Below are positions 1,115-30,521 of a stretch of DNA of 64,000 bases, in pieces. The stretch comes from an uncultured Candidatus Binatia bacterium. Its GTDB lineage: Bacteria > Desulfobacterota > Binatia > UBA9968 > JAJDTQ01. The stretch lies in the NCBI GenBank assembly GCA_965242525.1, contig OZ251459.1, positions 3,353,515 to 3,417,514 on the forward strand. The letters are read 5' to 3'. A program made the position numbers and the translations under genes. Position 1 is the stretch's first letter. Each line of letters begins with the position of its first letter. Below the pieces are notes generated by a model, which was not told where the DNA came from, searched no databases, and saw nothing but the letters and a program-made list of their open reading frames with translations.

Positions 1115-1119
1115 GAGCC

Positions 1120-3405: not shown

Positions 3406-3436
3406 GCCCGCGGGCGAGCCCCGGGCGCGTGGCCCC

Positions 3437-4783: not shown

Positions 4784-4806
4784 CCGCTGTCGGGAGCGAG
4801 GGGAAG

Positions 4807-5457: not shown

Positions 5458-5489
5458 CCGCTACGGGTGGGGTCCGATTTGGAAACGGC

Positions 5490-5783: not shown

Positions 5784-6052
5784 GAAAAGCCCGACATCCA
5801 GAGTGAACGCCGGGGGGTATAAACAGCGGCGTTTGCACGCCTGAAAGATAAGCTAAACCCACAGGCCGCTCGTGTCAAGACCCAAGGGGCGTCGTCCAGG
5901 ATCTTGAGGTCGCCGGTTCATAGAGGGCGCCCAGCCGTTCGTGGCGAGGTTGTCCGTCTTGGCGCGGTTCTCCGCCACCGTGTTGGATTCCGAGGACTTC
6001 CAAGCTATCCTGCTTTCTCAGTACCGACAGACTACCGCAGTGCTGACCCGCC

Positions 6053-8584
6053 ATGAACGAAGCCACAGCGCGCATCAAGATCAACAGACTGCTGGAAGCG
6101 GCCGGATGGCGGTTCTCCGACGAAGGAGACCATCGGGCCAACATCCGCCTCGAATCCGGCGTCACCATTGAACCGGCCGGTCTCGACGCCCTCGGAGACA
6201 ATTTCGAGAAAACCGCCCAAGGATTCATCGACTTCCTTTTGCTGGACGCCAAGGGATTCCCACTGATCGTTCTGGAGGCCAAGGCCGAGAACAAGAACCC
6301 GCTGGTAGGCAAGGAACAGGCGCGCAGGTACGCCCGCGCGCAGAACTGCCGTTTCGTGATCCTCTCCAACGGCAATCTGCACTACTTCTGGGATCTGGAA
6401 CGCGGCAGCCCATACATCATCACCACGTTCCCCAGGCCGGAGTCGGTAACCGGCTATCGGGAAGTAACGCCCGACCCGCAGCGCTTGGCGGAAGAACGGG
6501 TCAGCGACGACTACATTGTCCTGACCCAGCGCCCCAATTACGCGTCGGAAGCGGCTTGGAAGAGTGAAGCCGAACGCCCCATCTTCATCCGCGCCCATAA
6601 GCTGCGCTTTCTGCGTCCCTACCAACTGAATGCCGTCCTTGCCTTGCAACGCGCGGTCCGGGACGGCAACGACCGCTTTCTGTTCGAGATGGCTACCGGC
6701 ACGGGCAAGACGCTCACTGCAGCCGCGGTCATAAAGCTGTTCCTGCGCTCCCGCAACGCGCGCCGCGTGCTGTTCCTAGTGGACCGTCTGGAGTTGGAGG
6801 ATCAGACCCATAAGGTTTTCACCGCGTTGCTTTCCGTCGACTTCCAGACGGTCATCTACAAGGAGAAGCGCGACGATTGGCGGCGCGCCGAGATCGTCGT
6901 CAGCACGGTCCAATCCCTGCTGTTCAACAACAAGTACCAGCAGCTCTTCTCGCCCACGGATTTCGATCTGGTAATCTCCGACGAGGCGCATCGCTCCATC
7001 GGCGGTAACGCCCGGGCTGTGTTCGATTATTTCGTGGGCTACAAGCTCGGGCTCACCGCGACCCCGCGCGACTACCTGAAGGGTGCAGACCCCCAACGAG
7101 CCGCCAGTCATCCACGGGAGGCTGAGCGCCGGTTGCTGCTGGACACTTACCGTACCTTTGGCTGCGAGAGCGGACAGCCCACCTTTCGCTACTCGCTGTT
7201 GGACGGCGTGAAGGATGGCTACCTGATCAGCCCGACGGTGGTGGATGCGCGCACGGACGTGACCACCCGGCTCCTGTCCGAAGAAGGGTTCGTGGTCTCC
7301 TTCACCGACGAGACGGGCGACGACCGGGATGAGGCATACAGGCAGCGCGAGTTCGAGAAGCGTTTCTTCTCCGAAGCCACCAACCGCTTGTTCTGCAGGA
7401 CCTTCTTGGAGAACGCCTTGCGCGATCCGGTTAGCCGAGAGGTGGGCAAGTCCATCATCTTCGGAGTCAGCCAGAACCATGCCGCCAAGCTCGTCCATAT
7501 CTTCAACGCGATGGCCCATCGCATGTTCCCTGGCAAGTATCAGTCCGACTTCGCCGTGCAGGTGACCTCGCAGATACCGGACGCCCAGCCGTTTACCGTG
7601 AACTTCACCAACAACAACCTGCTGGGCTCGGGCAATTTCCTGCCCACGTACAGGAGCAGCAAGGCCCGTGTCTGTGTTACTGTAGGTATGATGACCACCG
7701 GGTACGACTGTACCGACGTCCTGAACCTTGGCATGTTTCGGCCCATTTTCTCGCCCACCGATTTCGTCCAGATCAAGGGCCGCGGCACCCGCAGGCACCG
7801 GTTCCTCGACCAACTCCACGATCCGGCGCTCGCAGAGAACGTCAGGCAGCCCGAAAAGACCGCCTTCAAGCTCTTTGACTTCTTCGCCAATTGTGAGTAC
7901 TTTGAGGAAGAATACGATTACGACCAGGTCATCGACCTGCCCAAAGCCGTCACGGACAACGGGCCAACCGACGGTGTTGTGGACGGGCCGCACACAGTGT
8001 TGGAAATATACGAGCATTCGGGTCCGGACGACTTGTCAATGGTGAAGGAAGAAACCATCGGCGTCGAGGGCATGAAGATCGACCGCATGTTCTTCGAGCG
8101 GTTCGAGGATACAGTGAAGGAGAATGGATTCATCGCCACGTGCGTCGAAGCCGGGGAGTGGGAGAAAGTGATCGAGTACGTCAACCGGGAAGTCTTCGAC
8201 AAGCCGGAGGAATACTACAGTTTGGACAAGCTTCGCAGAGCCGCGGCGGTGGACCGTCGCCTGACCCTGCGGGAGATCCTTGAAAAGGTCTTCGGCCTCA
8301 TCCCGCGCTTCAAGTCGAGGGACGAGTTGCTGGAGGAGGAGTTCGCCAAGTTCGTCGCCGATTACAAACCCAAAGAGGCGACGGCCATCCCCGCCCTCAA
8401 GACTTACTTCAAAGCGTACGCCACCAGTAACCAGATCCGCGACATCATCGAAAGCCGTAACTACACAGACCTCGCCACCAACCCGGCCTTTTCCACCCGG
8501 GACTTTCGCGCAGTGCCAGAGAGATACCGCGCCATCATCCCGAATTACATCAAGGACTACGTGCCACTGAACCAGTTCGCCTGA
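6053..8584 (+). CDS. hsdR: Type I restriction enzyme R subunit-like: N-terminal PD-(D/E)xK nuclease plus SF2 DEAD/DEAH motor, 843 aa.
   Basis: HSDR_N-type nuclease motif LLDAKGFPLIVLEAKAE. Helicase motifs LRPYQLNAV (Q), MATGTGKT (I), VISDEAHRS (II), LGLTATP (III) and QIKGRGTRR (VI). Confidence 0.8.
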   Translation: MNEATARIKINRLLEAAGWRFSDEGDHRANIRLESGVTIEPAGLDALGDNFEKTAQGFIDFLLLDAKGFPLIVLEAKAENKNPLVGKEQARRYARAQNCRFVILSNGNLHYFWDLERGSPYIITTFPRPESVTGYREVTPDPQRLAEERVSDDYIVLTQRPNYASEAAWKSEAERPIFIRAHKLRFLRPYQLNAVLALQRAVRDGNDRFLFEMATGTGKTLTAAAVIKLFLRSRNARRVLFLVDRLELEDQTHKVFTALLSVDFQTVIYKEKRDDWRRAEIVVSTVQSLLFNNKYQQLFSPTDFDLVISDEAHRSIGGNARAVFDYFVGYKLGLTATPRDYLKGADPQRAASHPREAERRLLLDTYRTFGCESGQPTFRYSLLDGVKDGYLISPTVVDARTDVTTRLLSEEGFVVSFTDETGDDRDEAYRQREFEKRFFSEATNRLFCRTFLENALRDPVSREVGKSIIFGVSQNHAAKLVHIFNAMAHRMFPGKYQSDFAVQVTSQIPDAQPFTVNFTNNNLLGSGNFLPTYRSSKARVCVTVGMMTTGYDCTDVLNLGMFRPIFSPTDFVQIKGRGTRRHRFLDQLHDPALAENVRQPEKTAFKLFDFFANCEYFEEEYDYDQVIDLPKAVTDNGPTDGVVDGPHTVLEIYEHSGPDDLSMVKEETIGVEGMKIDRMFFERFEDTVKENGFIATCVEAGEWEKVIEYVNREVFDKPEEYYSLDKLRRAAAVDRRLTLREILEKVFGLIPRFKSRDELLEEEFAKFVADYKPKEATAIPALKTYFKAYATSNQIRDIIESRNYTDLATNPAFSTRDFRAVPERYRAIIPNYIKDYVPLNQFA

Positions 8585-8603
8585 ATCGTGAGGAGGAACC
8601 GCC

Positions 8604-10451
8604 TTGCTCGACTCCACCACCAAACACCGTATTGACACCGCCCGTGATATCCTCGTGGGCAAGGTGCCTGACCCCAAGAGTCAGGTGGAGCAGATCACCA
8701 TCGCGCTCATCTATAAGTTCATGGACGATATGGACGCCGAAAGCGAGGAGTTGGGAGGACGGCGCAGGTTTTTTGCCAACAGGTTCGCCCGCTACGGCTG
8801 GACGAAGTTGATGCGCTCCGGCCTGGGGGGGCACGAAACCCTGAACCTCTATGCCGAAGCCATCACCCGTATGCCCGAGAACCCCGGCATTCCACCCCTG
8901 TTCCGCAGCATCTTTAACAATGCCTACCTGCCCTACCGCGACCCGGAGACCTTGCGCGCCTTCCTAAAGGTCATCAACGAGTTCACCTATGACCACTCGG
9001 AGCGGCTGGGAGACGCTTTCGAGTACCTGCTGTCCGTCATGGGTTCCCAGGGCGACGCTGGCCAGTTCCGCACCCCGCGCCACATCATCGACTTCATCGT
9101 CGCCATCATCGACCCGAAAAAGGATGAGACTATGCTCGATCCGGCGTGCGGTACCGGAGGTTTCCTCATCTCCTCTTACAAACACATCCTGAAGACCAAC
9201 ACGGACGAGGACGGGAACAGCACTCTCACGCCCGAAGACCGCCGCCGACTCGCCGTCAACTTCAAGGGCTACGATATCTCTCCCGACATGGTGCGCCTCT
9301 CCCTCGTGAATATGTACCTCCACGGCTTCGCCGACCCGCACATCTTGGAGTACGACACCCTCACCAGCCAGGAACACTGGAACGAGTACGCCGACGTCAT
9401 ACTGGCCAACCCCCCTTTCATGTCACCCAAGGGCGGCATCCGCCCACACAACCGGTTTTCGGTCCAGTCCAAGCGTAGCGAAGTCCTGTTCGTGGACTAC
9501 ATGGCCGAGCACTTGAACCCTACTGGCCGAGCCGGAATCATCGTACCCGAAGGCATCATCTTCCAGAGTCAAGGCGCACACACGAAATTGCGCCGGATGC
9601 TGGTAGAGGATTTCCTCGTAGCGGTCATTTCATTGCCAGCCGGCGTGTTCCAGCCCTATTCCGGCGTGAAGACCTCGATCCTGATCCTGGACAAGGCGCT
9701 GGCCAAACGGACAAACCGCATCGCTTTCTTCGGGGTGGAGAACGACGGCTACGATCTAGGAGCACAGCGACGACCGATCGAGGAGAACGACTTGCCACGC
9801 GTAACGGCCGAGATCGTAGAGTATCTGGGCCACTCGCGAACCGATAAATTCCTGAACGCTGCCGAACCGATACGCGCCGGGCAAGTGGCGGAGCCTAGGG
9901 GTACGTATACGACGGTCGAACCGTCCAGAGGCTTTCAACCTAATAGCGGACTCATCGTCGAGAAGGAACAAATCGCCACTCTTGGAGGCTATGGCTTGAA
10001 TGCGGTGCGTTATCAGGAAGGCGACACCCGCAAGAAGAAATCAAAGTGGCCACTTGTGAAAGTTAAGGATGTGTGCCAAGCTATTTTGGGTGGTGGCACT
10101 CCTTCTACGAAAAACGAAGAGTACTGGCAAGGGAAGATTCCTTGGATCACAAGTGCCGACATCGTAAATCTCACGACTGCGAGACCACGTCGATATATCA
10201 CGGAGAAAGCAATAAAGGAATCGGCCACCAACTTGATCCCCAAAGACAATGTGGTAGTTGTAACAAGAGTTGGCCTCGGGAAACTATTCAGGAACAGTTT
10301 TGATATATGTATTAGTCAAGACTCACATGGGTTGATCGTGAAAGATGGAGTCAATGCGGATTATCTGGTACAGATACTGAAAGACAAGGTGAAGGAATTC
10401 AAGAAAAGCAGTCAAGGTTCGACCATACAGGGAGTTACAAAAAGAGACTAG
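8604..10451 (+). CDS. hsdM: Type I R-M HsdM (N6-adenine methyltransferase) fused to a single HsdS-like target-recognition domain. Reading frame is interrupted at 10449.
   Basis: TTG start after a GAGGAGG RBS. HsdM_N region, motif I DPACGTGGFL, motif IV NPPF. The C-terminal ~200 aa (KVKDVCQAILGGGTPSTKNEEYWQGKIPWITSADI...) resembles an HsdS TRD. Confidence 0.8.
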   Translation: MLDSTTKHRIDTARDILVGKVPDPKSQVEQITIALIYKFMDDMDAESEELGGRRRFFANRFARYGWTKLMRSGLGGHETLNLYAEAITRMPENPGIPPLFRSIFNNAYLPYRDPETLRAFLKVINEFTYDHSERLGDAFEYLLSVMGSQGDAGQFRTPRHIIDFIVAIIDPKKDETMLDPACGTGGFLISSYKHILKTNTDEDGNSTLTPEDRRRLAVNFKGYDISPDMVRLSLVNMYLHGFADPHILEYDTLTSQEHWNEYADVILANPPFMSPKGGIRPHNRFSVQSKRSEVLFVDYMAEHLNPTGRAGIIVPEGIIFQSQGAHTKLRRMLVEDFLVAVISLPAGVFQPYSGVKTSILILDKALAKRTNRIAFFGVENDGYDLGAQRRPIEENDLPRVTAEIVEYLGHSRTDKFLNAAEPIRAGQVAEPRGTYTTVEPSRGFQPNSGLIVEKEQIATLGGYGLNAVRYQEGDTRKKKSKWPLVKVKDVCQAILGGGTPSTKNEEYWQGKIPWITSADIVNLTTARPRRYITEKAIKESATNLIPKDNVVVVTRVGLGKLFRNSFDICISQDSHGLIVKDGVNADYLVQILKDKVKEFKKSSQGSTIQGVTKRD

Positions 10452-10607
10452 CCGAAATTGAGATACCTCTTCCTCCGCCGATCGTACAACGAGAAATCGT
10501 AGAAGAGATAGAGAGGTGCCAAAAAGTTATAGACGAGGCATTAGAATTGGTAACGCAGATGAACAGCAAAATAGAGACAACCCTAACGCGAGTGTGGGAA
10601 TCATAGT
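10439..10607 (+). pseudogene. Frameshifted conserved C-terminal segment of HsdS (LAEIEIPLPPPIVQREIVEEIERCQKVIDEALELVTQMNSKIETTLTRVWES). An A5 tract at 10439-10443 separates the two frames.
   Basis: Frame 2 downstream of the TAG at 10449 encodes the canonical HsdS 'IPLPPLxEQ' conserved region. One extra A in the A5 run would fuse it in frame, giving ...STIQGVTKKRLAEIEIPLPP... Confidence 0.6.
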
Positions 10608-10610
10608 TTT

Positions 10611-12278
10611 ATGAGAGAGAATCAAATGTATTGGGATATTCCGCAAATTGTCGGCGAGCCGCTGCATATACCTATCACTGGCGGCGACCGGATTTTCATC
10701 GTAGGTCCCAACGGTTCGGGAAAATCAGCGTTGATTCAGCACTTTGTCTCGTTACATGGGTCTCAGAATCAGCCTCAGGAAATCCAACGTATTGCAGCGC
10801 ATAGGCAGACATGGCTTACTTCGGGAAGCATTGATGTTACACCGAAGAAACGCAGACAGTTTGATGAAATCTTTAAGACATATGAAACCGATCCTGCCTC
10901 ACGATGGATGGATAGGAGTCCGCACGAGAGACAGTCAGCGGTGCTCTTTGATTTGGTTGCGCAAGAGAATGATCGAGCCCGTCGCATTACTCGTCAAGTT
11001 GACGATGGAAAGGAGTGTGAAGCGAAACGAATCGCTGCTAGAACAACATCTCCTTTCGCTCGACTCAACGATCTATTACAATGTGGAATGTTGACAATCA
11101 CACTTGAAGATTCGCTTGGGGAAGAGATACTGGCTCGGCATCGAGGTACGGAAACCTCCTTCAGCATGGCGCAGATGTCGGATGGGGAACGAAATGCTGC
11201 TATTATTGCCGCTAATGTATTGACTGTGAAACCTGATACTATATTGTTAATCGATGAACCGGAGCGGCATTTGCACAGGTCGATTATTGAGCCTTTTCTT
11301 TCTGCCGTGTTTGAACAACGACAAGACTGTGCGTTCATCATTTCGACACATGAGCTCGCCCTGCCGATTGCCAATCCAAGAGCACAAGTTCTTATGGTTC
11401 GATCATGTAGATGGGGGGCGGATACTGCAGAAGCGTGGGATGCGCAACTTCTCAAAGCAAGTCCGGAACTACCGGAAGATCTGAAACGCTTGATCCTGGG
11501 TGCTCGAAGGAGAATTTTGTTTGTCGAGGGCACCTCAGGCAGCTTAGACCTACCACTTTATACTACTCTATTCCCGAAGGTCTCCGTGGTGTCGCAGGGG
11601 AGTTGTACTGATCTCCTAAGGGCCGTAAAAGGCTTGCGAGAGACTACAAACCTGCATCACGTCGAGGCATTTGGTCTTATTGACCGGGATAACCGCGGAG
11701 AGGATGAGGTTAAACAATTGTTTGATAATGGAGTGTTTGCTCTCGAAGTGTACTCAGTGGAAGCGCTTTACTATTCTCTGGACGCTATTGAAGCGGTGGC
11801 TCGTTGGCAAGCGAATTCATTCAGGTGCAGCGCCGATGAGATGATCGCGTCTGTGAAAGAGGAAGCATTGCGTGTCTTGGAGGAAAGCGATTTGGCAGAA
11901 AGAATGGCAGCACGACGAAGTGCCGGTCGGATACATGCTGAATTATTGTCACAAATGCCTGATTGGAAATACATCAGAGACCATAGGGGTAGCAGATTCA
12001 AAGTTTCCGTGGAGTCTCCGTACTCAGAGGAACTGGAGCATTTTCGCAAACTTGTTGCCGAAAAGAGATTGGATGAACTCGTCGCACGCTATCCGTTACG
12101 CGAGAGTCGTCTATTCAATACCATTGCCAACGCTTTGAAGTGTCGTTACAGAAGTGACTACGAGCAGATGGTGCTTTCCCGGCTTAGAGACGCCGAGAAT
12201 CTGGCTCAGAAGCTGAAACAACGCGTCGGCCCTCTCGCGACGGAGCTTGAGCGGGCTACCTCCCGGGAAGCAGGCTGA
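10611..12278 (+). CDS. ABC-type ATPase fused to a DUF4435/TOPRIM-like domain: an OLD-family or fused AriA-AriB (PARIS)-like defence protein.
   Basis: Walker A GPNGSGKS, signature-like MSDGER, Walker B/H ILLIDEPERHLH. C-terminal half has TOPRIM-type acidic motifs ILFVEGTSGSLD and FGLIDRDNRGEDE. About 44% GC against a ~69% background, and begins four nucleotides after the hsdS end. Confidence 0.65.
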   Translation: MRENQMYWDIPQIVGEPLHIPITGGDRIFIVGPNGSGKSALIQHFVSLHGSQNQPQEIQRIAAHRQTWLTSGSIDVTPKKRRQFDEIFKTYETDPASRWMDRSPHERQSAVLFDLVAQENDRARRITRQVDDGKECEAKRIAARTTSPFARLNDLLQCGMLTITLEDSLGEEILARHRGTETSFSMAQMSDGERNAAIIAANVLTVKPDTILLIDEPERHLHRSIIEPFLSAVFEQRQDCAFIISTHELALPIANPRAQVLMVRSCRWGADTAEAWDAQLLKASPELPEDLKRLILGARRRILFVEGTSGSLDLPLYTTLFPKVSVVSQGSCTDLLRAVKGLRETTNLHHVEAFGLIDRDNRGEDEVKQLFDNGVFALEVYSVEALYYSLDAIEAVARWQANSFRCSADEMIASVKEEALRVLEESDLAERMAARRSAGRIHAELLSQMPDWKYIRDHRGSRFKVSVESPYSEELEHFRKLVAEKRLDELVARYPLRESRLFNTIANALKCRYRSDYEQMVLSRLRDAENLAQKLKQRVGPLATELERATSREAG

Positions 12279-12368
12279 ATCAATGGGCTCTTCCGGCTTT
12301 CGTGTGGGTAGGGATAGGGAGGAAAGGGGGGGTGAGACAGGGTAGAGGGAGCGGCAAGGGAGGGAGCA

Positions 12369-21227: not shown

Positions 21228-22766
21228 CTACTCCTTCCGTTGGCTCCGCGGGTCGTCCAGCGGCGTCCTGGGTCCGTCCAGGGCCAGCCGCCGGAAACGC
21301 GCCCGGTCCACCTTGAAGTCGTGGGCGTCGGTCTCCGGCCATTGGTAGAACGCGTCCGGGATCTTGTAGCGCGGCAGGGTCCGCCCGAGCCAGGCGGCCA
21401 GCGCCGCGGCGCCGGGACGCTCCCCCCGTGTCTGCACGAACGCCACGCACCGCTGGCCGAACTCCTCGTCGGGGATGGGCGCCACCACCGCCCGGTCCAC
21501 CCCGTCGTGGTCGGTCAGGGCGCGCTCGATCTCCTCGGGGTGGATGGTCTCGCCGCCGGAGAAGAAGCGGTTGTCGCGCCGGCCGATGACCGTCAGGTAG
21601 CCGTCCTCGTCCACGCGCCCGAGATCCCCGGTGGCGAACCAGCCGTCCGGGGTCAGGGGACGCATCAGGCTCCCGCCCTCCACGTAGCCCATGAACAGGG
21701 TCTCTCCGGCCAACTGGATCTCCCCCTCGCCGCCGATCCGGAGGCGGCGGTACGGCAGCAGCTTCCCGGAAGTGAGCCGCTGGGCGGTGGTGGAACCGGG
21801 TCCCGCGGTAGCCACCTGGGAGGCCATCTCGGTGCAGCCGTAGCTGGCGAACACCGGCAGACCGCGAGCGCCCGCCCGTTGCAGCAGTTTCCGCGGGACC
21901 GGGCTGCCCCCCAGGACGATGCAGCGGAGCGAAGGGTAGCGCACGGACTCGGGCCGCTGCAACAACCTGTGGAGCTGGGTGGCCACCACCGACAGGTGCG
22001 TGACCTCGTAACGGTTCAGGACCGCGTCCAAGGTCTCTCCCCGGTCCGGCATCACCACCGCGGCCCCCGCCAGCAGGCAGCGGAAGAGGATACCGAGCCC
22101 GCCCACGTGGTAGAGCGGCAGGTCCAGCAGCCAGCGGTCCCCGGCCGCCAGCGGCAGGTTCCGGTTGGATCCCAGGGCGTTGTAGTAGTGGTTGCCGTAG
22201 GAGTGGAGCACCGCCTTGGGCGCGCCGGTGCTGCCGGAGGTAAAGACGATGGTCGCGGCGCGGCCGAGGGGCATGGCGGAACCCTGGGTATCCTCGACCA
22301 AGGGATCCCTGTCCGCGGCGAATTTGCGGCCGGCATGGGATTCGGCAAGATCCATGTGCGTATCGGCGACCGGCGAGGCTCCGGCCGCGGCAAGGTCCCG
22401 GCCCCGGATCAGGGTCGCGCGGTCTCCGAGCCCCTGCTCGTCCGGGACCTGGGCCACCAGCTTCCGGCAGTCGATGCGCCGCAGCAGGTCGGCCACCGGG
22501 CGGTTGGGCAGGCGGGTGTTCATGGGACAGCACACCGCGCCCAGCCGGAGCAGCGCCAACAGCCAGACGAGGTAGTCCGGGCTGTTGGGCGCCAGTACGG
22601 CCACGCGCTCGCCGGGGGCGCAACCGGCCCGTCGCAGGGCAGCGGCCGCGGCGGCGACGCGGCCGCGGAGTTCGGCGAAGGAGAGGACGCGGTCGCCGCG
22701 CACCACCGCGGGGCGGTCGCCGGAATGCTCGGCCGCTTCTTCGAGGGGGCAGCGGACCTCAGTCAT
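21228..22766 (-). CDS. menE: o-Succinylbenzoate--CoA ligase (adenylate-forming enzyme).
   Basis: AMP-binding motif TSGSTGAPKAV and GEL(x)xGxxxxxGY. Located directly downstream of menC. Confidence 0.75.
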   Translation of the reverse strand: MTEVRCPLEEAAEHSGDRPAVVRGDRVLSFAELRGRVAAAAAALRRAGCAPGERVAVLAPNSPDYLVWLLALLRLGAVCCPMNTRLPNRPVADLLRRIDCRKLVAQVPDEQGLGDRATLIRGRDLAAAGASPVADTHMDLAESHAGRKFAADRDPLVEDTQGSAMPLGRAATIVFTSGSTGAPKAVLHSYGNHYYNALGSNRNLPLAAGDRWLLDLPLYHVGGLGILFRCLLAGAAVVMPDRGETLDAVLNRYEVTHLSVVATQLHRLLQRPESVRYPSLRCIVLGGSPVPRKLLQRAGARGLPVFASYGCTEMASQVATAGPGSTTAQRLTSGKLLPYRRLRIGGEGEIQLAGETLFMGYVEGGSLMRPLTPDGWFATGDLGRVDEDGYLTVIGRRDNRFFSGGETIHPEEIERALTDHDGVDRAVVAPIPDEEFGQRCVAFVQTRGERPGAAALAAWLGRTLPRYKIPDAFYQWPETDAHDFKVDRARFRRLALDGPRTPLDDPRSQRKE

Positions 22767-23850
22767 GCCGCGCCTCGCGCAACAGCGCGCAGTCGATGCG
22801 GTGGTCCCGGGCCAGGTCGTCGTTCCAGGACAGGGCGTCCGGTCGGAACCGGATGCGCGGCCGGACCACGTCGGCGTCGAGCCAGCGGTAGGTGTCGAGG
22901 CCCGCGGGGACTGCCGCGCCGGTGGAGTCCCAGGCGAACCCTGCCACCGCCAGCGTCCCGACGCCGCTCTCGAAACAGCCGCTCGCCACCGGGCGCACGC
23001 CCAGGGCCAGCGCCTTGGCGGCCCATTCCCGGGCCCTTGCCGCGCCGCCCAGGAGCGTGGGCTTCAACACCACCGCGCCCACCTCCTGGCGTCCTTCCAG
23101 GTCGTCGGGTCCGAGCTCCAACAGGCTCTCGTCCAGCCCCACCGGGATGCCGGTGGCGTCGAAGAACTCTCCCAGGCGCGCCGGGTCGCGCAGGGGCTCC
23201 TCCAGGTACTCGACGCCCGCGTCGCCCGCCGCCTTGCCGAAGGCCACCGCCTGCTCCAGGCTCCAGCTCCGGTTGGCGTCCAGCCGGAGGCTCACGCCTT
23301 GCCCCACCGCGGCCCGCACCGCCCGCGTCAACTCCGCGTCTTCCGCCGCCCCTCGACTCCCCACCTTGAGCTTGACCGCGCGGCAACCCGCGTCCCCGAG
23401 TCGCGCGGCCTGCCGCAGCACTTCCTCCCGGGACCCCATCAGCAGACCGTTGACCGGGACTGCGCCGTCGAAGCCCGGCAACTCCCCGTCAGTCCCCGTG
23501 CGCATGCGCCGCGACAGGCTCGCCAGCGCGGTCTCCAGGCCGAAACGCACCGACGGCGAGGCCGCCTCGGGCGGCTCGCGGCCCAGCCACGATTCGAGGT
23601 CGCCGCCGCCGGGCTCGAACCCCGCGCCTCCCAGACGCCGGGCAAGGGCGGTGAACTCGGCCGCGGCGTCGTCCACGCTCTCGCGGCTGAACCCGGGCAG
23701 CGGCGCCGCGTCGCCCCAACCCCACGCCCCGGAATCCGCCTGCACCCGCACCAGCAGGCCCGTGCGCTCGCGCACCGCCCCGCCCGCCAGCGGCAGCGGC
23801 CGCGCCAGCGGCAGGCGGTAGCGAAAGATCCGGCAGCCCTCGATCCTCAT
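22759..23850 (-). CDS. menC: o-Succinylbenzoate synthase (enolase superfamily).
   Basis: Enolase-superfamily barrel with KLKVG...LRLDAN.SW...EEP; lies in the men gene context. Confidence 0.75.
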   Translation of the reverse strand: MRIEGCRIFRYRLPLARPLPLAGGAVRERTGLLVRVQADSGAWGWGDAAPLPGFSRESVDDAAAEFTALARRLGGAGFEPGGGDLESWLGREPPEAASPSVRFGLETALASLSRRMRTGTDGELPGFDGAVPVNGLLMGSREEVLRQAARLGDAGCRAVKLKVGSRGAAEDAELTRAVRAAVGQGVSLRLDANRSWSLEQAVAFGKAAGDAGVEYLEEPLRDPARLGEFFDATGIPVGLDESLLELGPDDLEGRQEVGAVVLKPTLLGGAARAREWAAKALALGVRPVASGCFESGVGTLAVAGFAWDSTGAAVPAGLDTYRWLDADVVRPRIRFRPDALSWNDDLARDHRIDCALLREARHD

Positions 23851-24042
23851 GATGCTAAGGTTAGCCAGGCTAGGAGCCTGTCCGAGTAAGGAATCCTGGA
23901 TTCCAGGTCAAGCCTAGAATGACCGGACGGAACTTCTCCCGTCATTCCCGCGAAAGCGGGAATCCAGAGGAAGCGAGCCCCACTTCCCCGTGGCGGGTCG
24001 CTTCCCTTTCATCGTGTTCCATTTTATTTCTCCTTCCCCCTT

Positions 24043-24069
24043 TTCATTGGCTACTTCGCCAAGTATAAT
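24043..24069 (+). promoter_or_regulatory. Candidate sigma70-type promoter (TTCATT-N15-TATAAT) for the low-GC cassette.
   Basis: Perfect TATAAT at 24064-24069, 77 nt upstream of the XRE gene ATG; the -35 is weak. Confidence 0.3.
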
Positions 24070-24145
24070 CTGTCTCAAGGGTAAAGCATGCCCTAACCGA
24101 TGTCAATACCCGACAGTTTATTTTTGTCGAACTCGACATTAAAGG

Positions 24146-24496
24146 ATGCTTGCTCTGTCTGAAATCTTTCAACAACGTTTAAGGGCTGCTAGGGGTACAC
24201 GCGAATGGAGCCAAAGCGATTTGGCTAAACGCGCGGGTTTGCCGCCTAGCTCGATTGCCCATTTTGAAACCGGACCGCGCAAGCCGTCTTTCGAAACCCT
24301 GCGTCGCTTGGCTAATGCCCTAGAAGTTACGACCGATTATCTTCTAGGGAGAGTCGAAGATCCAGGTCTTGCCGAATCAGGAGATCCGCTCTTCCGTGAT
24401 ATTGGCAACCTGACCGGCAGTGATCGCGACCTAGCGAGAGACTTCCTCAAAATGTTGACGGAACGCAGTTCGGCTAAGCAAGGGAGGATCAAATGA
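24146..24496 (+). CDS. XRE-family helix-turn-helix transcriptional regulator.
   Basis: HTH_XRE signature WSQSDLAKRAGLPPSSIAHFETG; AAAGGA RBS; about 50% GC. Confidence 0.8.
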   Translation: MLALSEIFQQRLRAARGTREWSQSDLAKRAGLPPSSIAHFETGPRKPSFETLRRLANALEVTTDYLLGRVEDPGLAESGDPLFRDIGNLTGSDRDLARDFLKMLTERSSAKQGRIK

Positions 24497-24708
24497 ATGT
24501 GCCCTTGGTTTAGAGTTAGCCAAAAGGATGGGGGGAGCTATCCAGGGTTTTGAAATTCAACCTTGCCCGTCACCTCTCTTGAAATGGCAGGACTCCACGA
24601 TATCGTCTGGAGCCGAAACTCGGCATCGCCACAGGGGTGTCAGGAATGCTGTCTGTACTGGGAAGTCATTTGCTGAGCAGATCGTTACCGCTATAACGGA
24701 GTCATCAA

Positions 24709-25578
24709 ATGGCTACGGGAAAAAGCTCGACTGTCTATCGCGCCCTTAGCTTGGGTGCGGGAGCGCAGAGTTCTGTTTTAGCACTCCTGCTATCTCGATC
24801 CGACCCCCATTTAGCTAAGCTTGGGTATCACAAGCCCAATGCCGCCATCTTCGCTGATACCGGATGGGAACCTGAGTATGTGTATCGTCATTTGGACTGG
24901 CTTGAGGGACAGCTTCGGTATCCGCTGATCCGAGTGTCCGAAGGCAATCTGAGGACTAACCTTAAACAGGCCCGCACTGTGTCAGGTCATCGTTTTGTTG
25001 ATGTCCCCTTATTCATAGTCGATGGGGACGGCAGGAAAGGGATGTTACGCCGACAGTGCACCACTCACTACAAAATCAGGCCGATTTATCGACAGATCCG
25101 AAAGCTTGCCGGAGGACAGCCTAGTCGACCGTTCCCCAAGGACACCCATGCTGAAATATGGCTCGGGATTTCGCTGGACGAGGTCGGCCGCATGAAGCCG
25201 AGCAAGGAACCGTGGGTAGAACATCGATGGCCGCTGGTGGACATCGGCATGACACGTCAAGATTGTATCGAATGGTTTCAGTCTGAGTATCCAGACCGCC
25301 ATCTACCTCGGTCGGCCTGCGTCATTTGCCCGTATCGTTCAGACAAACATTGGTTGGAATTGAAACGACATGAACCTACTAGCTACAAAGAGGCTGTGCA
25401 ATTCGACCGCTGGCTCCGAAGAAGCACCGAGACACCTCTACGCAAACTGCTGAACGGTCGCCCATATCTGCATTCGGCTCGGCGACCCCTCGCCAGCGTC
25501 ATGAAGGAACGGAAGACGGAAGACGTGGGCGATATAAATAACTTCAACAATGAATGCGAGGGTCTCTGTGGTGTCTGA
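24709..25578 (+). CDS. PAPS reductase / PP-loop ATP-pyrophosphatase-like protein (DndC/CysH-like fold). First gene of the 4-gene cassette.
   Basis: N-terminal degenerate PP-loop YRALSLGAGAQSSVLALL. C-terminal Cys-rich segments CTTHYKIRP and CVICPYRSDKHW. GGAG RBS. Confidence 0.5.
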   Translation: MATGKSSTVYRALSLGAGAQSSVLALLLSRSDPHLAKLGYHKPNAAIFADTGWEPEYVYRHLDWLEGQLRYPLIRVSEGNLRTNLKQARTVSGHRFVDVPLFIVDGDGRKGMLRRQCTTHYKIRPIYRQIRKLAGGQPSRPFPKDTHAEIWLGISLDEVGRMKPSKEPWVEHRWPLVDIGMTRQDCIEWFQSEYPDRHLPRSACVICPYRSDKHWLELKRHEPTSYKEAVQFDRWLRRSTETPLRKLLNGRPYLHSARRPLASVMKERKTEDVGDINNFNNECEGLCGV

Positions 25579-26818
25579 AACAGAGGCTGAAACAATCAGG
25601 CCAAGATATTCCTTATATCCCTACCAGCGTCAGGTGCTGGCCGACGTTCTTCGTGCCCTATCGTTTTCCGAACGTCGTGTGCTTGCTCATCTTCCTACTG
25701 GCGCCGGGAAAACCAGAATCGCAGCCCATGCTGCTTGCCATATGCTCAACGATCACGACACAGACAAGTCTCTTGTAATTTGGTTAGCGGCCACAGAGGA
25801 ACTCTGTGAGCAAGCAGCAGAGCAGCTTTCAAGGGCATGGATTTATCTGGGACGACGAGATGCCTGCATCCATCGACATTGGGGAACAAAGTCGGCGGAA
25901 CTACGGGACCTCCATTCGGGGTTTTTGGTGACAGGTCTTGCTAAACTTCGCTCCGCCGCTTTTTCAGATAACACTCTCCTTGCGCATCTTGCACACCGCG
26001 CTGCTGCGGTCATTTTTGACGAAGCCCATCAGGCAATTGCAGCAACCTACTCCTTTATTACAGAGCAACTATGCAGTGTAAAGCCACCTCTTCTTGGTCT
26101 TACAGCCACGCCGGGACGAACCGCGAATCTCACTGACGCAGATTATCTCCTTGCTAACATGTTCAATAATAACAAGGTTTCCATAGACCCAAGGGGACAC
26201 GGCAACCCTGTTACCTATTTGATCCAGAATCGCTACCTAGCCGATCCGCGATTTGTGTCTGTCAGATTCGATTCCGCCGCGTCGATTATTGACCCTTTAC
26301 CCGGTACAGACTACCGTACAGAAGACCTTGACGATTTGGGCCGCAGCCGCGAGCGCACGCGCAAGATTGTAGATCTCGCCGTGGCCGCAGCGGAGCATCA
26401 CCCTCGTACAATCATGTTTTGCCCTTCCGTTGAGAGTGTTTTGGAATGCAACAAACTCCTTCAAGCCAGGTCGGTCAAGACGGCTGTAGTCACGGCTCAC
26501 ACACCAAAGGAAGAACGTCGTGAAATCATCGAGACGTTCAGAAGTAACGACAGAGAGCACATGCTAATACTTAATTATGGCGTGCTCACTGCAGGTTTCG
26601 ATGCCCCTCGTACCCGCTGCGTCATCATCGCACGCCCGACCACTTCGCTGGTACTTTACTCGCAAATGGTCGGTCGAGCTATGCGTGGCCCGATGGCCGG
26701 GGGAAATTCCAAGGCCGAAATCTTTACGGTTACTGACACCAACCTTCCAGGGTTTGGTTCTGTGGTTGACGCCTTTACAAATTGGGAGGATCTATGGACG
26801 ACCAACTCGCCGAATTAG
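25550..26818 (+). CDS. SF2 DEAD/DEAH-box helicase.
   Basis: Motifs I HLPTGAGKT, II FDEAHQ, III LTATP and VI QMVGRAMRG. Overlaps the preceding gene by 29 nt. Confidence 0.8.
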   Translation: MNARVSVVSETEAETIRPRYSLYPYQRQVLADVLRALSFSERRVLAHLPTGAGKTRIAAHAACHMLNDHDTDKSLVIWLAATEELCEQAAEQLSRAWIYLGRRDACIHRHWGTKSAELRDLHSGFLVTGLAKLRSAAFSDNTLLAHLAHRAAAVIFDEAHQAIAATYSFITEQLCSVKPPLLGLTATPGRTANLTDADYLLANMFNNNKVSIDPRGHGNPVTYLIQNRYLADPRFVSVRFDSAASIIDPLPGTDYRTEDLDDLGRSRERTRKIVDLAVAAAEHHPRTIMFCPSVESVLECNKLLQARSVKTAVVTAHTPKEERREIIETFRSNDREHMLILNYGVLTAGFDAPRTRCVIIARPTTSLVLYSQMVGRAMRGPMAGGNSKAEIFTVTDTNLPGFGSVVDAFTNWEDLWTTNSPN

Positions 26819-28665
26819 AAAACGCAGACCGCAGCCTTTTTCCGAGCGACTATACAGTACAGGCTCTTCGAGACAGTCGGTATCACAATACCGCCTATGC
26901 CATTGCTGAACTCATTGATAACTCGATAGAGGCAAATGCTGCAAGAATCGATTTTCTTTGCATGGAAGAACTACAAAGCGTAGGCCCTCAGACACGGAGA
27001 CGAATCTCAGGAGTTGCCATACTGGACGACGGTGAGGGAATGGAAGTAAGGACACTCCTTGAGGCTCTTAGATTTGGGGGAGGAACACGACACAACTCGG
27101 ATAGAGGAATCGGCAAATATGGCATGGGTCTCCCCACATCCTCGATGTCTCAATGCAAGAGAGTTGACGTATGGACTTGGCAGGAAGGGGTGGACTCAAC
27201 TTGGCATTCCTATATCGATGCGGACGATATTGCTAACGGGAACCACAAGGTGCCTGTTCCTGATCGACAACAAATACCCGAGACATGGCGAATAGCCGGA
27301 AGCGATGAAATCTATGGACATCGCACCGGTACTCTTGTCGTGTGGAGCAAGCTAGACAAGGTTCAGTGGAAAACTAGCCGTGCGATCATCGACAATACCT
27401 CCCGCGAGGTAGGTCGTATTCATAGGCACTGGATTCATGCGGAAATGACCAAAATACGAGTCGTTTCTTTCCCTGCTAACCGGCCTACAGAGCCAGATAC
27501 GGGTCCCTCCTATATTGTAGCAAACGATCCTCTTTACTTGCTGAAGCCCACTTCTACTCCTCACCCTTGGGATGATAAAGAGATGTTTGTAGAGTGGTGT
27601 CCCCCAAGAGAATACCCGTGTCAAGTTGAGGGTCGAGAACACAGGATTTGGGTAAAATATTCTATCGTGAAACCAGAGGCATTGAGGACGGAGAGAGTTA
27701 CACAAAACCCAGGCAACGAAGCCCACGGGAAACACGCTAGACACAACATCGGGGTATCTGTTGTACGAGAAGATAGGGAAATTGTTCTTGAAGATGCTTT
27801 TCTCAGAGAGGGCGGCAGTACAGACCTTCCTCAGAATCGCTGGTGGGGTTGCGAAGTACTATTCTCTCGAGGTTGCGATGAGTTGTTTGGTGTAGATCAT
27901 AATAAGCAAATGGTGGCAAATTTTACGCAGGCAGCGAAAACTCTTACCCGTGACGATCGTGACCCTCATGTGATCCTAGAGGAGATGGGGATTGATGAAG
28001 AGGACATCATTCACAGGATAGTGGGAGACATCCGAAACCAAACGCGGGCCATGATGGATGCCATTCGGCAGATGTTTGAGCAGCGTCGAAAGTCGGTTGA
28101 CGATGGTGGGCGTACCAGTAGGCATAGGAACCCAGAAGATAAAGCTATAAGGATCGCTACTGACGCGGATCGGGACGCTATAGCAGCCGGTGAAGAGCAG
28201 CCGACTAAGACTGATATAGATCGTGAGCAAATTCCGCCTCAAGAACGACAGGAGCGCCTCGTAGAACAGTTCATTGAAGCCGGACAACCCGGCCAAGACG
28301 CGGAGAAGCGCGCGAAGCTGCTGATACAGGAAGATTTGTCCTACCAGTTCAGCTCGGAACAGGGAGACGGATTTCAGATTTTCAAGGTACGTTCTTATCA
28401 AGGAATTTTGCACATCAAGCTCAACACGGAGCATCCAATCTATGACCTTCTCAAACATATTGAAAATGATCTTCCGGAGAATGGAGATGAGGCGGATCCC
28501 AGGTTTCAGGCCAGTGTTGCGATCAGATTATTGCTATCTTCCTGGGCTCGGATGGAAGACCAGACAGAGGCACAGCAGGAACGAGCACGTATTCAAGATA
28601 CTGCCATGAACTGGGGGCGTCAAGTAGACAAGGCTATCCGCCAACTGCGTGACAGAAGCCGATGA
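26794..28665 (+). CDS. GHKL (Bergerat-fold, MORC/HATPase_c_3-like) ATPase.
   Basis: Bergerat motifs ELIDNSIEANA (N box), ILDDGEGM (G1) and GKYGMGLP (G2). The long C-terminal region is charged and helical. ATG at 26794 follows GGGAGG; TTG at 26782 is an alternative start. Confidence 0.75.
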   Translation: MDDQLAELENADRSLFPSDYTVQALRDSRYHNTAYAIAELIDNSIEANAARIDFLCMEELQSVGPQTRRRISGVAILDDGEGMEVRTLLEALRFGGGTRHNSDRGIGKYGMGLPTSSMSQCKRVDVWTWQEGVDSTWHSYIDADDIANGNHKVPVPDRQQIPETWRIAGSDEIYGHRTGTLVVWSKLDKVQWKTSRAIIDNTSREVGRIHRHWIHAEMTKIRVVSFPANRPTEPDTGPSYIVANDPLYLLKPTSTPHPWDDKEMFVEWCPPREYPCQVEGREHRIWVKYSIVKPEALRTERVTQNPGNEAHGKHARHNIGVSVVREDREIVLEDAFLREGGSTDLPQNRWWGCEVLFSRGCDELFGVDHNKQMVANFTQAAKTLTRDDRDPHVILEEMGIDEEDIIHRIVGDIRNQTRAMMDAIRQMFEQRRKSVDDGGRTSRHRNPEDKAIRIATDADRDAIAAGEEQPTKTDIDREQIPPQERQERLVEQFIEAGQPGQDAEKRAKLLIQEDLSYQFSSEQGDGFQIFKVRSYQGILHIKLNTEHPIYDLLKHIENDLPENGDEADPRFQASVAIRLLLSSWARMEDQTEAQQERARIQDTAMNWGRQVDKAIRQLRDRSR

Positions 28666-29519
28666 CTATGTACGGTTGGCCGGGAGACTTGTTGGCCGGC
28701 GTTTGTTCACGTGCCCAATATTTGATTATCGCAGCGCCATACATCAAGTCCGACGCTCTTGTCAGGGTTCTAGCTGACGTTAATCCAGGAGCCTCTCTTG
28801 TCTGCATCACGAGATGGAATCCGCATGACCTCGTTACAGGTGCATCCGATGTGGAATGTCGTACCATTGTCATTAAGCGAGAAGGTTTCTTTAGACTTCA
28901 TCCGTCACTCCATGCGAAATACTATCGAGCAGACAATGTGGTTTTAATTGGATCCGCTAATTTGACATCTTCCGCATTAGGCTGGACACGTCAACCTAAC
29001 CTGGAGATTCTTTGTCGTCCGGAAGATGATTTCGACGCTGACGCCTTTCAACAGTCTCTGTTCGATGGATCGAGAGAAATTGATGATGAAGAGTTCAAAT
29101 CTTGGAAATCCATTGCAGATATGACACTTCAAGGTAGGAGAAGAGTGGTTGACGAACCTCCTAGACTTGATACCTGGAGACCGGCGACTCGCGACCCCAG
29201 ACACTTGGAGTTCGCGTATCAGGGGAAAGACGATGAAATTGCTTCGTTCGACGAGCAACGAGCGGCACAGCGTGACATGCGGACTCTTCGGATTCCTCCA
29301 GGTTTGACCAGCGCGCAGGTTCGAACCTGGATCTCAGGTTGTCTTTTTGCCGCTTCCTTCACCAACACCATACTCCGGCTGCATAATATGGAAAACTTAG
29401 ATGTATCTCGTTCACTTGCAGACATCTACAAACTCAGCGTCACTGATGCACGAAGGGATATGGAAACCGTCCAAAATTGGCTTTCATTCCTTGCTCCACA
29501 GACTTTGACTCGAACTTAA
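28662..29519 (+). CDS. Phospholipase D-family (single HKD) nuclease, Nuc/BfiI-like.
   Basis: HKD motif HAKYYRADNVVLIGSANLT. The ATGA overlaps the GHKL gene's stop. Confidence 0.75.
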   Translation: MTMYGWPGDLLAGVCSRAQYLIIAAPYIKSDALVRVLADVNPGASLVCITRWNPHDLVTGASDVECRTIVIKREGFFRLHPSLHAKYYRADNVVLIGSANLTSSALGWTRQPNLEILCRPEDDFDADAFQQSLFDGSREIDDEEFKSWKSIADMTLQGRRRVVDEPPRLDTWRPATRDPRHLEFAYQGKDDEIASFDEQRAAQRDMRTLRIPPGLTSAQVRTWISGCLFAASFTNTILRLHNMENLDVSRSLADIYKLSVTDARRDMETVQNWLSFLAPQTLTRT

Positions 29520-29596
29520 AATCGATCCTCTTCCGATTCTCCTCGTGCACGGTCCGCATGTCCACTCCTATCGAAGGGGCTCATACCAAGAGATCC

Positions 29597-30493
29597 TCAC
29601 AGGACCCAACCGACGGAGAAGAGCGCGCTGTACAACAGGAGCAGCTTGGCCGTGTAAGCGAGTAACGGGTTCAACGAAGGCCCCTCGGAGACGAAGATCC
29701 TGCGGAAGGCCGGCAGCGCCGCGACCAGGACCGCGGCCGCGGCCGCGGACCAGGGACGACGGCCCGAAGCGAGGTAGAGGGCGAGGGGCAGCAGGCAGGC
29801 GGCCACCACCGCGGCCACGTATTCGGCGCGGACGAAGCCGCGTCCGAAACGCACGGCCAGGGTCCGCTTGCCGGTGCGCCGGTCCTCGTCCGCGTCCCGG
29901 AGGTTGTTGACCGCGAGGATGGCCACGGACAGCAGGCCCGGCGCCAGCCCGGCCGCCGCCACCGTGGCGTTGACGCTCAGGGTCTGCACGTAATAGGTCC
30001 CGGCCACCGCCACCGGTCCGAAGAACACCAGCACGAAGAGGTCGCCGAGCCCCAGGTAGCCCAGCGGCCGCGGTCCGCCGGTGTAGAGCAGCCCCGCGGC
30101 CACGGAGGACAGGCCGATGAGGGCCGCGGGCCATCCGCCGCGCCACACGAGGTAGAGGCCGCCCAGCAGGGTGAGGGCCAGCACCGCGGCGATGCCGCGC
30201 TTCATGGTCCCGGGGGCCAAGAGCCCGGCCTGGGTGACCCGCAACGGCCCCTGGCGGGACTCGGTGTCCGCGCCCTTCTCGAAGTCGAAGAGGTCGTTGG
30301 CGAAGTTGGTGGCCACCTGGATCAGCACCGCGCAGGCCAGCGCCGCCAGCGCCGAAGGCGCGTGGAACCCGCCGTCGTCCACGGCCATGGCGGCGCCCAC
30401 CACCACCGGGGCCACCGAAGCCCAGAGGGTCTTGGGTCTCGCCGCCAGGAACCAGACCGCGGCGGGGCCCGGCGGCTGGGCGCGGGTGCTCAA
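29597..30493 (-). CDS. menA: 1,4-dihydroxy-2-naphthoate polyprenyltransferase (UbiA family).
   Basis: UbiA-type motif NDLFDFEKGAD; nine predicted TM segments; lies in the men context. Confidence 0.8.
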   Translation of the reverse strand: MSTRAQPPGPAAVWFLAARPKTLWASVAPVVVGAAMAVDDGGFHAPSALAALACAVLIQVATNFANDLFDFEKGADTESRQGPLRVTQAGLLAPGTMKRGIAAVLALTLLGGLYLVWRGGWPAALIGLSSVAAGLLYTGGPRPLGYLGLGDLFVLVFFGPVAVAGTYYVQTLSVNATVAAAGLAPGLLSVAILAVNNLRDADEDRRTGKRTLAVRFGRGFVRAEYVAAVVAACLLPLALYLASGRRPWSAAAAAVLVAALPAFRRIFVSEGPSLNPLLAYTAKLLLLYSALFSVGWVL

Positions 30494-30521
30494 CGTTCCC
30501 CCGTGGCTTTCGCTCGCGGTC

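Follow-up and report, generated by a model that had tools for sequence, protein, structure and literature searches.

A four-gene cassette in a low-GC island

The window analyzed here is a stretch of 64,000 nucleotides (nt) from the genome of an uncultured Candidatus Binatia bacterium (GenBank assembly GCA_965242525.1, contig OZ251459.1, positions 3,353,515 to 3,417,514). It contains a 5.7-kb island with a guanine-plus-cytosine (GC) content of ~51%, as compared with ~67% for the genome, in which four forward-strand genes form a cassette (Table 1). The first of these genes, the subject of this study, encodes a homolog of SspD with the fold of 3′-phosphoadenosine-5′-phosphosulfate (PAPS) reductases. 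It is followed by genes for a superfamily 2 (SF2) helicase, a MORC-like GHKL ATPase and a phospholipase D (PLD)-family nuclease with a single HKD motif, referred to below as the triad. A first-pass annotation had described the gene as PAPS-reductase-like, with a degenerate PP-loop and a cysteine-rich C-terminus, and as a possible DNA-modifying component.

Table 1 Coordinates of the genes, motifs and other features of the window
Feature	Position	Strand	Details
SspD-homologous PAPS-reductase-fold protein, predicted DNA-modification enzyme	24709-25578	+	ATG start, 289 aa
Remodeled P-loop SLGAGAQSS, residues 14-22	24748-24774	+	G16-A-G18-x-Q20-S21 at the place of SspD S-G-G-K-D-S
RQ-C117-TTHYKIRP motif	25057-25083	+	Invariant C117 aligned to the Cys of SspD 'RWCT'
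C204-V-I-C207-PYRSDKHW motif	25318-25353	+	Invariant CxxCP aligned to SspD 'CTFC'
C-terminal ECEGLCGV tail (C283, C287)	25552-25575	+	Positional counterpart of the SspD terminal CxxC; disordered in the model
SF2 helicase, 422 aa	25550-26818	+	Pfam ResIII 1.9e-20, DEAD, Helicase_C; 29-nt overlap with the gene before it
MORC-like GHKL ATPase, 627 aa	26782-28665	+	Pfam HATPase_c_3 5.8e-21; NCBIfam MzaB N-terminal region 9.6e-18
Single-HKD PLD-family nuclease, 285 aa	28662-29519	+	Pfam PLDc_2 2.6e-5 (below gathering score); weak PADLOC DrmC match
Low-GC (0.51) horizontally acquired island	23890-29596	.	Composition; between menC-like and menA/UbiA-like genes
menC-like gene	22759-23850	-	Pfam MenC_N/MR_MLE_C
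menA/UbiA-like gene	29597-30493	-	Pfam UbiA
Promoter-like TTTTCA-17-TATAAT, 10/12	24041-24069	+	Consensus match only; number of such sites not above shuffled expectation
CapH-like Cro/C1 helix-turn-helix (HTH) regulator, 116 aa	24146-24496	+	Pfam HTH_3 6e-16, PADLOC capH 6e-27
73-aa open reading frame, probably no gene	24528-24749	+	Apparent 5′ remnant of an M78/ImmA (CapP-like) peptidase gene
HsdR-like ResIII helicase/nuclease	6053-8584		Second island
Fused N6-adenine methylase and specificity subunit	8604-10451		Second island
AAA_21 + DUF4435 (OLD-like) ATP-binding-cassette (ABC) ATPase	10611-12278		Second island

The open reading frame (ORF) and each motif quoted in the first-pass annotation were recovered letter for letter: in the protein, SLGAGAQSS occupies residues 14–22, CTTHYKIRP residues 117–125 and CVICPYRSDKHW residues 204–215, and the C-terminus reads NNECEGLCGV. 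Of the 8000 candidates scored in a word-indexed search, 7414 proteins reached E ≤ 1e-3, and many of these are full-length with 72–91% identity; an exhaustive search of 50%-identity representatives gave 3997 clusters of homologs. Since homologs number in the thousands and many are full-length, the ORF is a real gene and not a chance reading frame.

All four ORFs of the cassette are full length relative to their homologs, and their catalytic motifs are intact. The helicase contains the motifs PTGAGKT, DEAH, TAT and QMVGRAMRG, and its best PADLOC match is the helicase part of PbeA (3.9e-20). The GHKL ATPase has recognizable N (ELIDNSIEA), G1 (DDGEGM) and G2 (GIGKYGMGL) boxes, and its profile matches human MORC2, MORC3 and MORC4 in the PDB, at best with 2.4e-10. 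The nuclease, whose gene overlaps the GHKL gene by 4 nt, carries the HKD motif HAKYYRADNVVLIGSAN, which was read directly from the sequence.

The protein is a homolog of SspD

The structure of the protein was modeled with AlphaFold2 from an alignment of 118 diverse homologs that are 37–83% identical to it. The mean predicted local distance difference test score (pLDDT) was 92.3, and disorder was limited to residues 280–289 (pLDDT <50). The best solved structures retrieved by Foldseek (E 2e-4 to 6e-3, probability 1.00) were CysH (1sur and 6vpu), adenosine-5′-phosphosulfate (APS) reductase (7lhr and 2goy), LarE and TrmU, with GMP synthetase also among them. As modeled, the protein has the adenine-nucleotide alpha-hydrolase fold and belongs to its PAPS-reductase branch, and the fold anticipated in the first-pass annotation is borne out to that extent.

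Profile comparisons place the protein closest to SspD among characterized relatives. The profile search that had been suggested, with the PAPS_reduct and DndC/SspD models, gave a divided result: Pfam PF01507 (PAPS_reduct) scored 19.3 bits, below its gathering score of 22.5, and the DndC models gave no match, whereas the PADLOC SspD model matched with 2.2e-14 (51.8 bits). PHROG 424, a phage family annotated as 'PAPS reductase', matched with 7.5e-40. Because PF01507 by itself is sub-threshold, the family placement rests on PHROG 424, the SspD comparison and the fold search taken together. The same SspD model scores 354.7 and 459.2 bits with the true SspD proteins of two metagenomic loci, L091 and L093; compared with these values, the 51.8 bits identify the protein as a homolog of SspD and not as a member of the SspD family itself. 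When the family profile was aligned to the bona fide SspD of L093 with hhalign, the probability was 98.6% (E 5e-16, 195 columns) with the motifs in register, as against 38.7% over the N-terminal 101 columns only for E. coli CysH. Given this difference, the family is a sister of SspD and not a sulfate-assimilation enzyme. The kinship with DndC and SspD that had been proposed thus holds for SspD, and the clear homology to CysH or CysD that would have pointed to sulfate assimilation was not found.

Searches of PDB sequences with the single protein of the window and with two prophage members of the family returned nothing useful, and the family profile had a sole match there, the entry 21fy 'PptA' (9e-4). 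Chain C of this entry (270 aa) is PAPS-reductase-like, has the non-canonical loop SCGAPS and a CVGC motif, and matches SspD with 1e-5. The entry is absent from the Foldseek PDB set, and no paper on PptA was found in the literature searched.

A remodeled loop and conserved cysteines

The canonical SGGxDS PP-loop is absent from the protein. Its replacement by SLGAGAQSS, which the first-pass annotation had recognized, was seen again in register with SspD, but the description of the loop as degenerate does not hold. The pattern 'S[LFMV]G[AGV]GxQS' is present in 248 of the 270 family sequences retrieved, nearly all of which end in 'ECEGxCG[VI]', and three residues of the loop (G16, G18 and Q20) are identical in 118 of 118 aligned homologs. 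Because the replacement is essentially invariant across the family, the loop is remodeled and under selection, not degenerate. In PP-loop enzymes, loss of the Asp speaks against the usual Mg-ATP pyrophosphatase chemistry, and CysH binds PAPS without cleaving ATP. Given the loss of the Ser, Lys and Asp of SGGKDS, ATP pyrophosphatase activity is not to be assumed for the protein.

Beyond the loop, the invariant residues of the 118-sequence alignment include R115, C117, G153, E158, R161, C204, C207, P208, W215, G285 and C287, and at least 90% of the homologs conserve S14, S21, D50, T51, S155, D157, C186 and C283. The cysteines highlighted in the first-pass annotation correspond in the alignment to the Cys triad and the terminal Cys pair of SspD, a pattern that fits an Fe-S or sulfur-relay enzyme. 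The extreme C-termini of SspD proteins read CIVCHK and CTVCAL, and the counterpart in the family is C283xxxC287; the ECEGLCGV tail recalls, but differs from, the ECGLH tail of CysH. You et al. (2007; cited as reference 6 in PMC12839542) reportedly described DndC as a [4Fe-4S] protein. It is a reasonable inference from these alignments that the protein possesses an Fe-S site and a flexible tail that carries sulfur.

The cassette is conserved and mobile

The arrangement of the cassette was compared in 30 genome loci whose homologs are 62–83% identical to the protein; this sample was anchored on the gene itself. Two loci are cut by contig ends. The four genes occur in the same order in 27 of the 28 assessable loci, and also in a metagenomic locus (L084). 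Departures from this arrangement affect the restriction genes alone: L022 keeps only the homolog and a helicase stub, L002 and L004 lack the N-terminus of the GHKL ATPase, and L027 lacks that of the helicase; in each the homolog is intact, as may be read from a sample that was anchored on it.

The genes flanking the cassette vary among loci, and insertion sequence elements lie beside some copies. In 25 of 25 loci tested, the GC content of the cassette is below that of the flanks (medians 0.544 and 0.631). The host metagenome-assembled genomes belong to Chloroflexota/Dehalococcoidia, Caldilineaceae, Latescibacterota, Gemmatimonadetes, Entotheonella and Rhodothermaceae, which we take to be mostly a typical set of marine-sponge symbionts. 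The varied flanks, the low GC content and the spread of hosts over several phyla together indicate horizontal transfer: as judged from these sequences, the four-gene unit is one that moves across phyla.

Three PAPS-reductase-type modules share one putative restriction triad

As a control for the choice of anchor, metagenomes were scanned with the GHKL ATPase instead, and 11 loci were returned. Among those that extend far enough upstream, L084, L091 and three near-identical loci (L089, L090 and L093) combine helicase, GHKL ATPase and PLD-type or other nuclease with a PAPS_reduct-type gene; L088 has no PAPS_reduct-type gene within the locus. In L091 the order is SspC (8e-295), SspD (1e-106), helicase, GHKL ATPase and HKD nuclease, and the last three are 47%, 36% and 34% identical, respectively, to the proteins of the window. 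In L089, L090 and L093, genes for an SspH-like protein, helicase, GHKL ATPase and nuclease converge on SspD-SspC-SspB. The helicase-GHKL-nuclease triad is thus a module of restriction type that can be attached to canonical Ssp modification genes too, and Ssp systems may have in it a restriction partner that has not yet been named. The first-pass annotation had read the gene order of the window as modification followed by restriction, and this reading gains from the conserved synteny and from the position of the same triad behind SspC-SspD in L091.

An observation in its own right is that a canonical module of SspC-SspD (also SspB) is joined to the triad instead of to SspE or the named SspFGH in L091 (positions 34–8781) and L093 (64–13712).

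A third module was found in 31 loci (within L031–L067) that carry a 40–49% identical domain. In these, PDC-M33A and PDC-M33B are followed by PDC-M33C fused to the PAPS-reductase-like domain, as exemplified by L031 (positions 4479–8834); PDC-M33A is a GHKL-like ATPase and PDC-M33C corresponds to Pfam DUF6339. The fusions carry the same loop and Cys motifs as the protein of the window. Four of the 31 loci (L036, L048, L052 and L056) continue with the same helicase-GHKL-HKD triad. Within 5 kb downstream in the other 27, the gene family seen most often is that of DUF262/GmrSD-type proteins, with up to 11 of the 70 ORFs scanned matching a single model of this type (HEC-05/06, Orf5 or the SspE model), and L031 encodes a bona fide SspE (1e-236). 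DndB is present in five M33 loci and PbeA/PbeC in two or three. SspE senses phosphorothioate (PMC12914056). The PDC-M33 unit resembles a modification module that belongs to phosphorothioate-type systems and has so far gone undescribed.

The other parts of this unit gave little. PDC-M33A and PDC-M33B have no sequence homologs in the PDB, Foldseek matched only the PAPS-reductase part of a DUF6339 fusion model (pLDDT 89) and nothing for DUF6339, and the PDC-M33 models match none of the six island proteins. The possibilities that PDC-M33A and PDC-M33B are TdpA and TdpB or copies of the triad were rejected: PDC-M33A shares only its N-terminal GHKL boxes with the triad ATPase (37.5%).

Three PAPS-reductase-type modules are therefore found with the same triad: SspBCD, the M33ABC fusion and the solo gene of the window. 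Interchange of three such modules, together with restriction modules otherwise known from phosphorothioate systems, is the pattern expected of a modification component.

Phages carry solo copies of the gene

The closest homologs that do not belong to the cassette clade (58%, 49% and 48% identity) have phage-like surroundings, with Phage_base_V, Dam and VapE genes. They come from the phage-like contigs L095, L096 and L097, the homolog of L096 being near a Dam gene. L095 is a contig of 197.7 kb that is possibly circular, as its name ends in 'c', and it carries the Phage_base_V gene. Solo copies with the same motifs are encoded by Thermus phage P23-77 (gp05, in a 17-kb genome) and Pelagibacter phage HTVC034P (gp12), by Geobacillus, Salisaeta and Synechococcus phages and by many Mycobacterium abscessus prophages. 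Solo homologs sit among early or replication genes of phages, as exemplified by P23-77, HTVC034P and L096. A 2024 paper calls the function of phage 'PAPS reductase' genes open (PMC11437467).

The distribution suggests that the gene has been exchanged between phages and the cellular cassette. Because phages with very small genomes retain solo copies and lack the triad, the protein works on its own, and solo carriage fits a self-sufficient modification enzyme that protects DNA.

Flanks of the island and other features of the window

The island has no integrase, a repeat search revealed neither direct nor inverted terminal repeats at its ends, and Rfam has no match in positions 23000–30500. Upstream of the cassette lies a gene for a CapH-like HTH regulator, 85% identical to the HTH protein encoded upstream of the cassette in L001. 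The gene under study had been called the first of the cassette; it does head the conserved four-gene core, but in the window the regulator gene precedes it. The promoter-like site upstream of the HTH gene sits in a stretch that is 77% identical in DNA to L001. There, the CapH-like regulator is followed by an intact M78/ImmA (CapP-like) peptidase of 287 aa (L001 positions 9074–9937). The DNA alignment between the window and L001 ends ~50 nt into this peptidase gene (window positions 24497–24749). The 73-aa ORF at this place has no family match in Pfam, PADLOC, NCBIfam or PHROG, and no homolog of the peptidase was found anywhere in the window. From this alignment, the CapP-like gene appears to be deleted in the window, and the CapH-like repressor may have lost its inducing protease.

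A second defense-type island of lower GC content (46–63%) occupies positions 5000–12300 of the window (Table 1). ARAGORN predicted two tRNAs on the reverse strand, both doubtful in this high-GC sequence: a tRNA-Asn at 46752–46833, whose anticodon, ATT, is unusual, and a tRNA-Ala(GGC) at 30308–30382, probably a spurious call within the menA-like ORF.

Proposed role of the cassette

A predicted modification gene is here linked to an exchangeable nuclease/translocase module, the arrangement of a restriction-modification-like system. We lean, at slightly better than even confidence, to the interpretation that the gene is the self-marking half of a four-gene restriction-modification-like cassette, with a mark most probably of the phosphorothioate type. 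Under this interpretation, sulfur would be supplied by a housekeeping cysteine desulfurase and be carried as a persulfide on the flexible C283/C287 pair. From there it would pass to an active site in which the remodeled P-loop is combined with the Cys triad C117/C204/C207, itself a candidate [4Fe-4S] site, and the enzyme would mark host DNA, most probably with sulfur in the backbone. The presumably co-transcribed helicase, MORC-like GHKL ATPase and HKD nuclease would scan DNA at the expense of ATP and cut it where the mark is missing, with the putative CapH-like repressor lying upstream of the cassette.

Several points weigh against this interpretation. The support for the predicted DNA marking is comparative throughout. 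In the family, the SspD motif SGGKDS has undergone a fixed replacement of its first Ser, its Lys and its Asp; the resulting G-x-Q loop has the arrangement seen in E. coli CysH (G-I-Q). DndC and SspD chemistry is described as dependent on ATP pyrophosphatase activity (PMC12914056). The PADLOC models of DndC and BrxP and all NCBIfam models gave no match to the protein (for DndC, at a cut-off of E ≤ 0.01 in PADLOC and NCBIfam). Within the cassette, Pfam, PADLOC and NCBIfam searches revealed no cysteine desulfurase, no recognition partner of the SspB/DndE type and no NTPase of the SspC/DndD/BrxC type, and in gut isolates, PAPS-reductase genes without those partners were associated with no detectable phosphorothioate (PMC12914056). 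Finally, expression of the cassette in the window is uncertain because the CapP-like protease is deleted. With regard to partners, the same source states that the Tdp system needs no more than one gene, tdpC, to synthesize phosphorothioate (PMC12914056).

A bolder proposal, which we put forward tentatively and consider more doubtful than the one above, is that the protein is a stand-alone SspD homolog that, with a CysH-type loop that does not cleave ATP, marks DNA with sulfur or another group in a manner different from Dnd, Ssp, bacteriophage exclusion (BREX) type 4 and Tdp, without a dedicated ATPase or a partner for DNA recognition, and that the mark is read by an undescribed machine of MORC-like GHKL ATPase, helicase and HKD nuclease. 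If this is true, phages too would use members of this family, which number in the thousands, as a portable modification against restriction, and the family would underlie PDC-M33.

The most serious rival, although we think it unlikely, retains a modification enzyme and changes its chemistry: instead of the ATP-driven reaction of Dnd and Ssp, it may use a pre-activated donor, for example APS/PAPS or an adenylated intermediate, or the mark on DNA may be a different one. In its favor, an invariant Q20 stands in place of the Mg-binding Asp and G16 in place of the first PP-loop Ser, G-[IV]-Q is found in E. coli CysH as well, the disordered 'ECEGxCG' tail resembles the 'ECGLH' of CysH, the top structural matches are PAPS and APS reductases, and an ATPase partner of the SspC/DndD type is missing. 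However, profile kinship is much stronger with SspD than with CysH (98.6% versus 38.7%), SspD too ends in a Cys pair, and SspE-type DUF262 proteins come repeatedly after the related M33 fusion module.

Less probable again is that the protein modifies no DNA at all and is a sensor, a regulator or a structural subunit of the triad, or acts on protein, nucleotides or RNA. Precedents are QueC-like PP-loop proteins in Qat and in cyclic-oligonucleotide-based antiphage signaling systems, as well as CysH-like genes that belong to type IV-B CRISPR. Catalytic PP-loop residues are lost, and in fold the protein is near tRNA thiolases and LarE as well. PAPS-reductase homologs moreover accompany systems without a known DNA modification, for example type IV-B CRISPR (PMC11437467). 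Against this stand loop and pocket residues that are invariant in thousands of sequences, as would be expected of an enzyme, the solo copies that phages with very small genomes (17 kb in P23-77) keep in the absence of the triad, and L091, where canonical SspC-SspD occupies the same position before the triad.

It is improbable that the cassette is a silent or decaying passenger in this genome and the gene without current function: the CapP-like peptidase is deleted and restriction genes have decayed in L022, L002/L004 and L027, but the four ORFs of the window are full length with intact catalytic motifs. An ordinary assimilatory PAPS/APS reductase (CysH) that lies beside defense genes by chance is the least plausible explanation by far, since, despite the best PDB folds (CysH and APS reductase), the weak PAPS_reduct match, the shared G-x-Q loop and the C-terminal Cys tail, the CysH alignment reaches 38.7% over the N-terminal half only, no NCBIfam CysH model matches, and the gene overlaps the helicase gene, lies in a mobile cassette of low GC content that has no cys genes in its neighborhood, and has homologs common in phages. 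The sulfate-assimilation assignment was rejected on the negative NCBIfam result and the marginal hhalign score.

Were the favored interpretation of a self-marking, phosphorothioate-type cassette true, a very large family that lacks annotation (3997 clusters, PHROG 424 and PDC-M33) would gain a function, and the presence of such a gene in phages as tiny as P23-77 would be explained. The interpretation would describe one small enzyme with a rebuilt nucleotide loop and place a prokaryotic MORC-type ATPase in a restriction arm, and the cassette would offer a tractable bacterial model for the coupling of a MORC-like GHKL ATPase to a helicase and a nuclease. Moving across phyla, the cassette may shape gene flow in communities that are, we presume, mostly sponge-associated.

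Comparison with known systems

The combination of the four genes is matched only weakly and in scattered fashion by PADLOC 2.0 and has no name in NCBIfam 20, and in the literature searched we found no paper describing the combination of a PAPS-reductase-like protein with helicase, GHKL ATPase and PLD nuclease, DUF6339 or PDC-M33.

With SspD, the protein shares the homologous domain, the DTG, RxCT, SxDExxR and CxxC motifs and the terminal Cys pair, and the same triad directly follows SspC-SspD in L091. It differs in having GAGxQS for SGGKDS and an insertion of ~13 residues before RQCT, and the cassette contains no SspB (DUF4007), SspC or SspA, whereas genes of this kind adjoin the triad in L091 and L093. 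The distance to DndC is greater, as no DndC model matches and the island has neither DndD nor DndE. BrxP of BREX type 4, in which a PAPS-reductase domain takes the place of the methyltransferase and makes phosphorothioate (PMC12914056), is a fusion of SspD and SspB (DUF4007) that needs BrxC, and its PADLOC model does not match the protein.

The PbeABCD/DndFGH-type systems resemble the cassette in that an SF2 helicase and an HKD endonuclease lie downstream of a PAPS-reductase-type gene. PbeA is an HKD-SF2 fusion, and a 2024 reappraisal of Dnd systems describes no MORC/GHKL partner (PMC10853773). In the window, by contrast, helicase and HKD nuclease are separate with a MORC-like GHKL ATPase between them, and neither a CxC ABC ATPase (PbeC) nor a DndE-like PbeD is present. 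PDC-M33, an unvalidated PADLOC candidate whose models leave out the PAPS-reductase-like domain, has M33C (DUF6339) fused to the same domain in many family members, preceded by M33A and M33B; DUF6339, M33A and M33B are all absent from the window. The phage genes of PHROG 424 are 38–42% identical to the protein, with the same loop and the same terminal CxxxCG, but they are solo, whereas the copy in the window is tied to a four-gene cellular cassette. CysH, finally, provides the best solved-structure matches, the G-x-Q loop and a flexible Cys-bearing C-terminal tail; it is set apart by a marginal profile match, a different genomic context and the extra conserved cysteines of the family.

In its presumed mode of action the protein is most like SspD or TdpC. 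The Tdp reaction is said to run through an ATP-derived adenylated DNA intermediate and to need a working PP-loop, with TdpA acting as a hexameric translocase and TdpB as a nuclease. As described in PMC12914056, TdpC (An et al. 2025, Nat Chem Biol) is likewise a single PAPS-reductase-type gene that makes up the entire modification module beside an ATPase/nuclease restriction module. In the window the partners are instead a helicase, a GHKL ATPase and an HKD nuclease; this comparison with TdpC is by description only, and kinship with TdpC is the main uncertainty about novelty. If the favored reading is true, the cassette would be a further architecture of sulfur-type (phosphorothioate-like) DNA modification and restriction, the smallest apart from Tdp.

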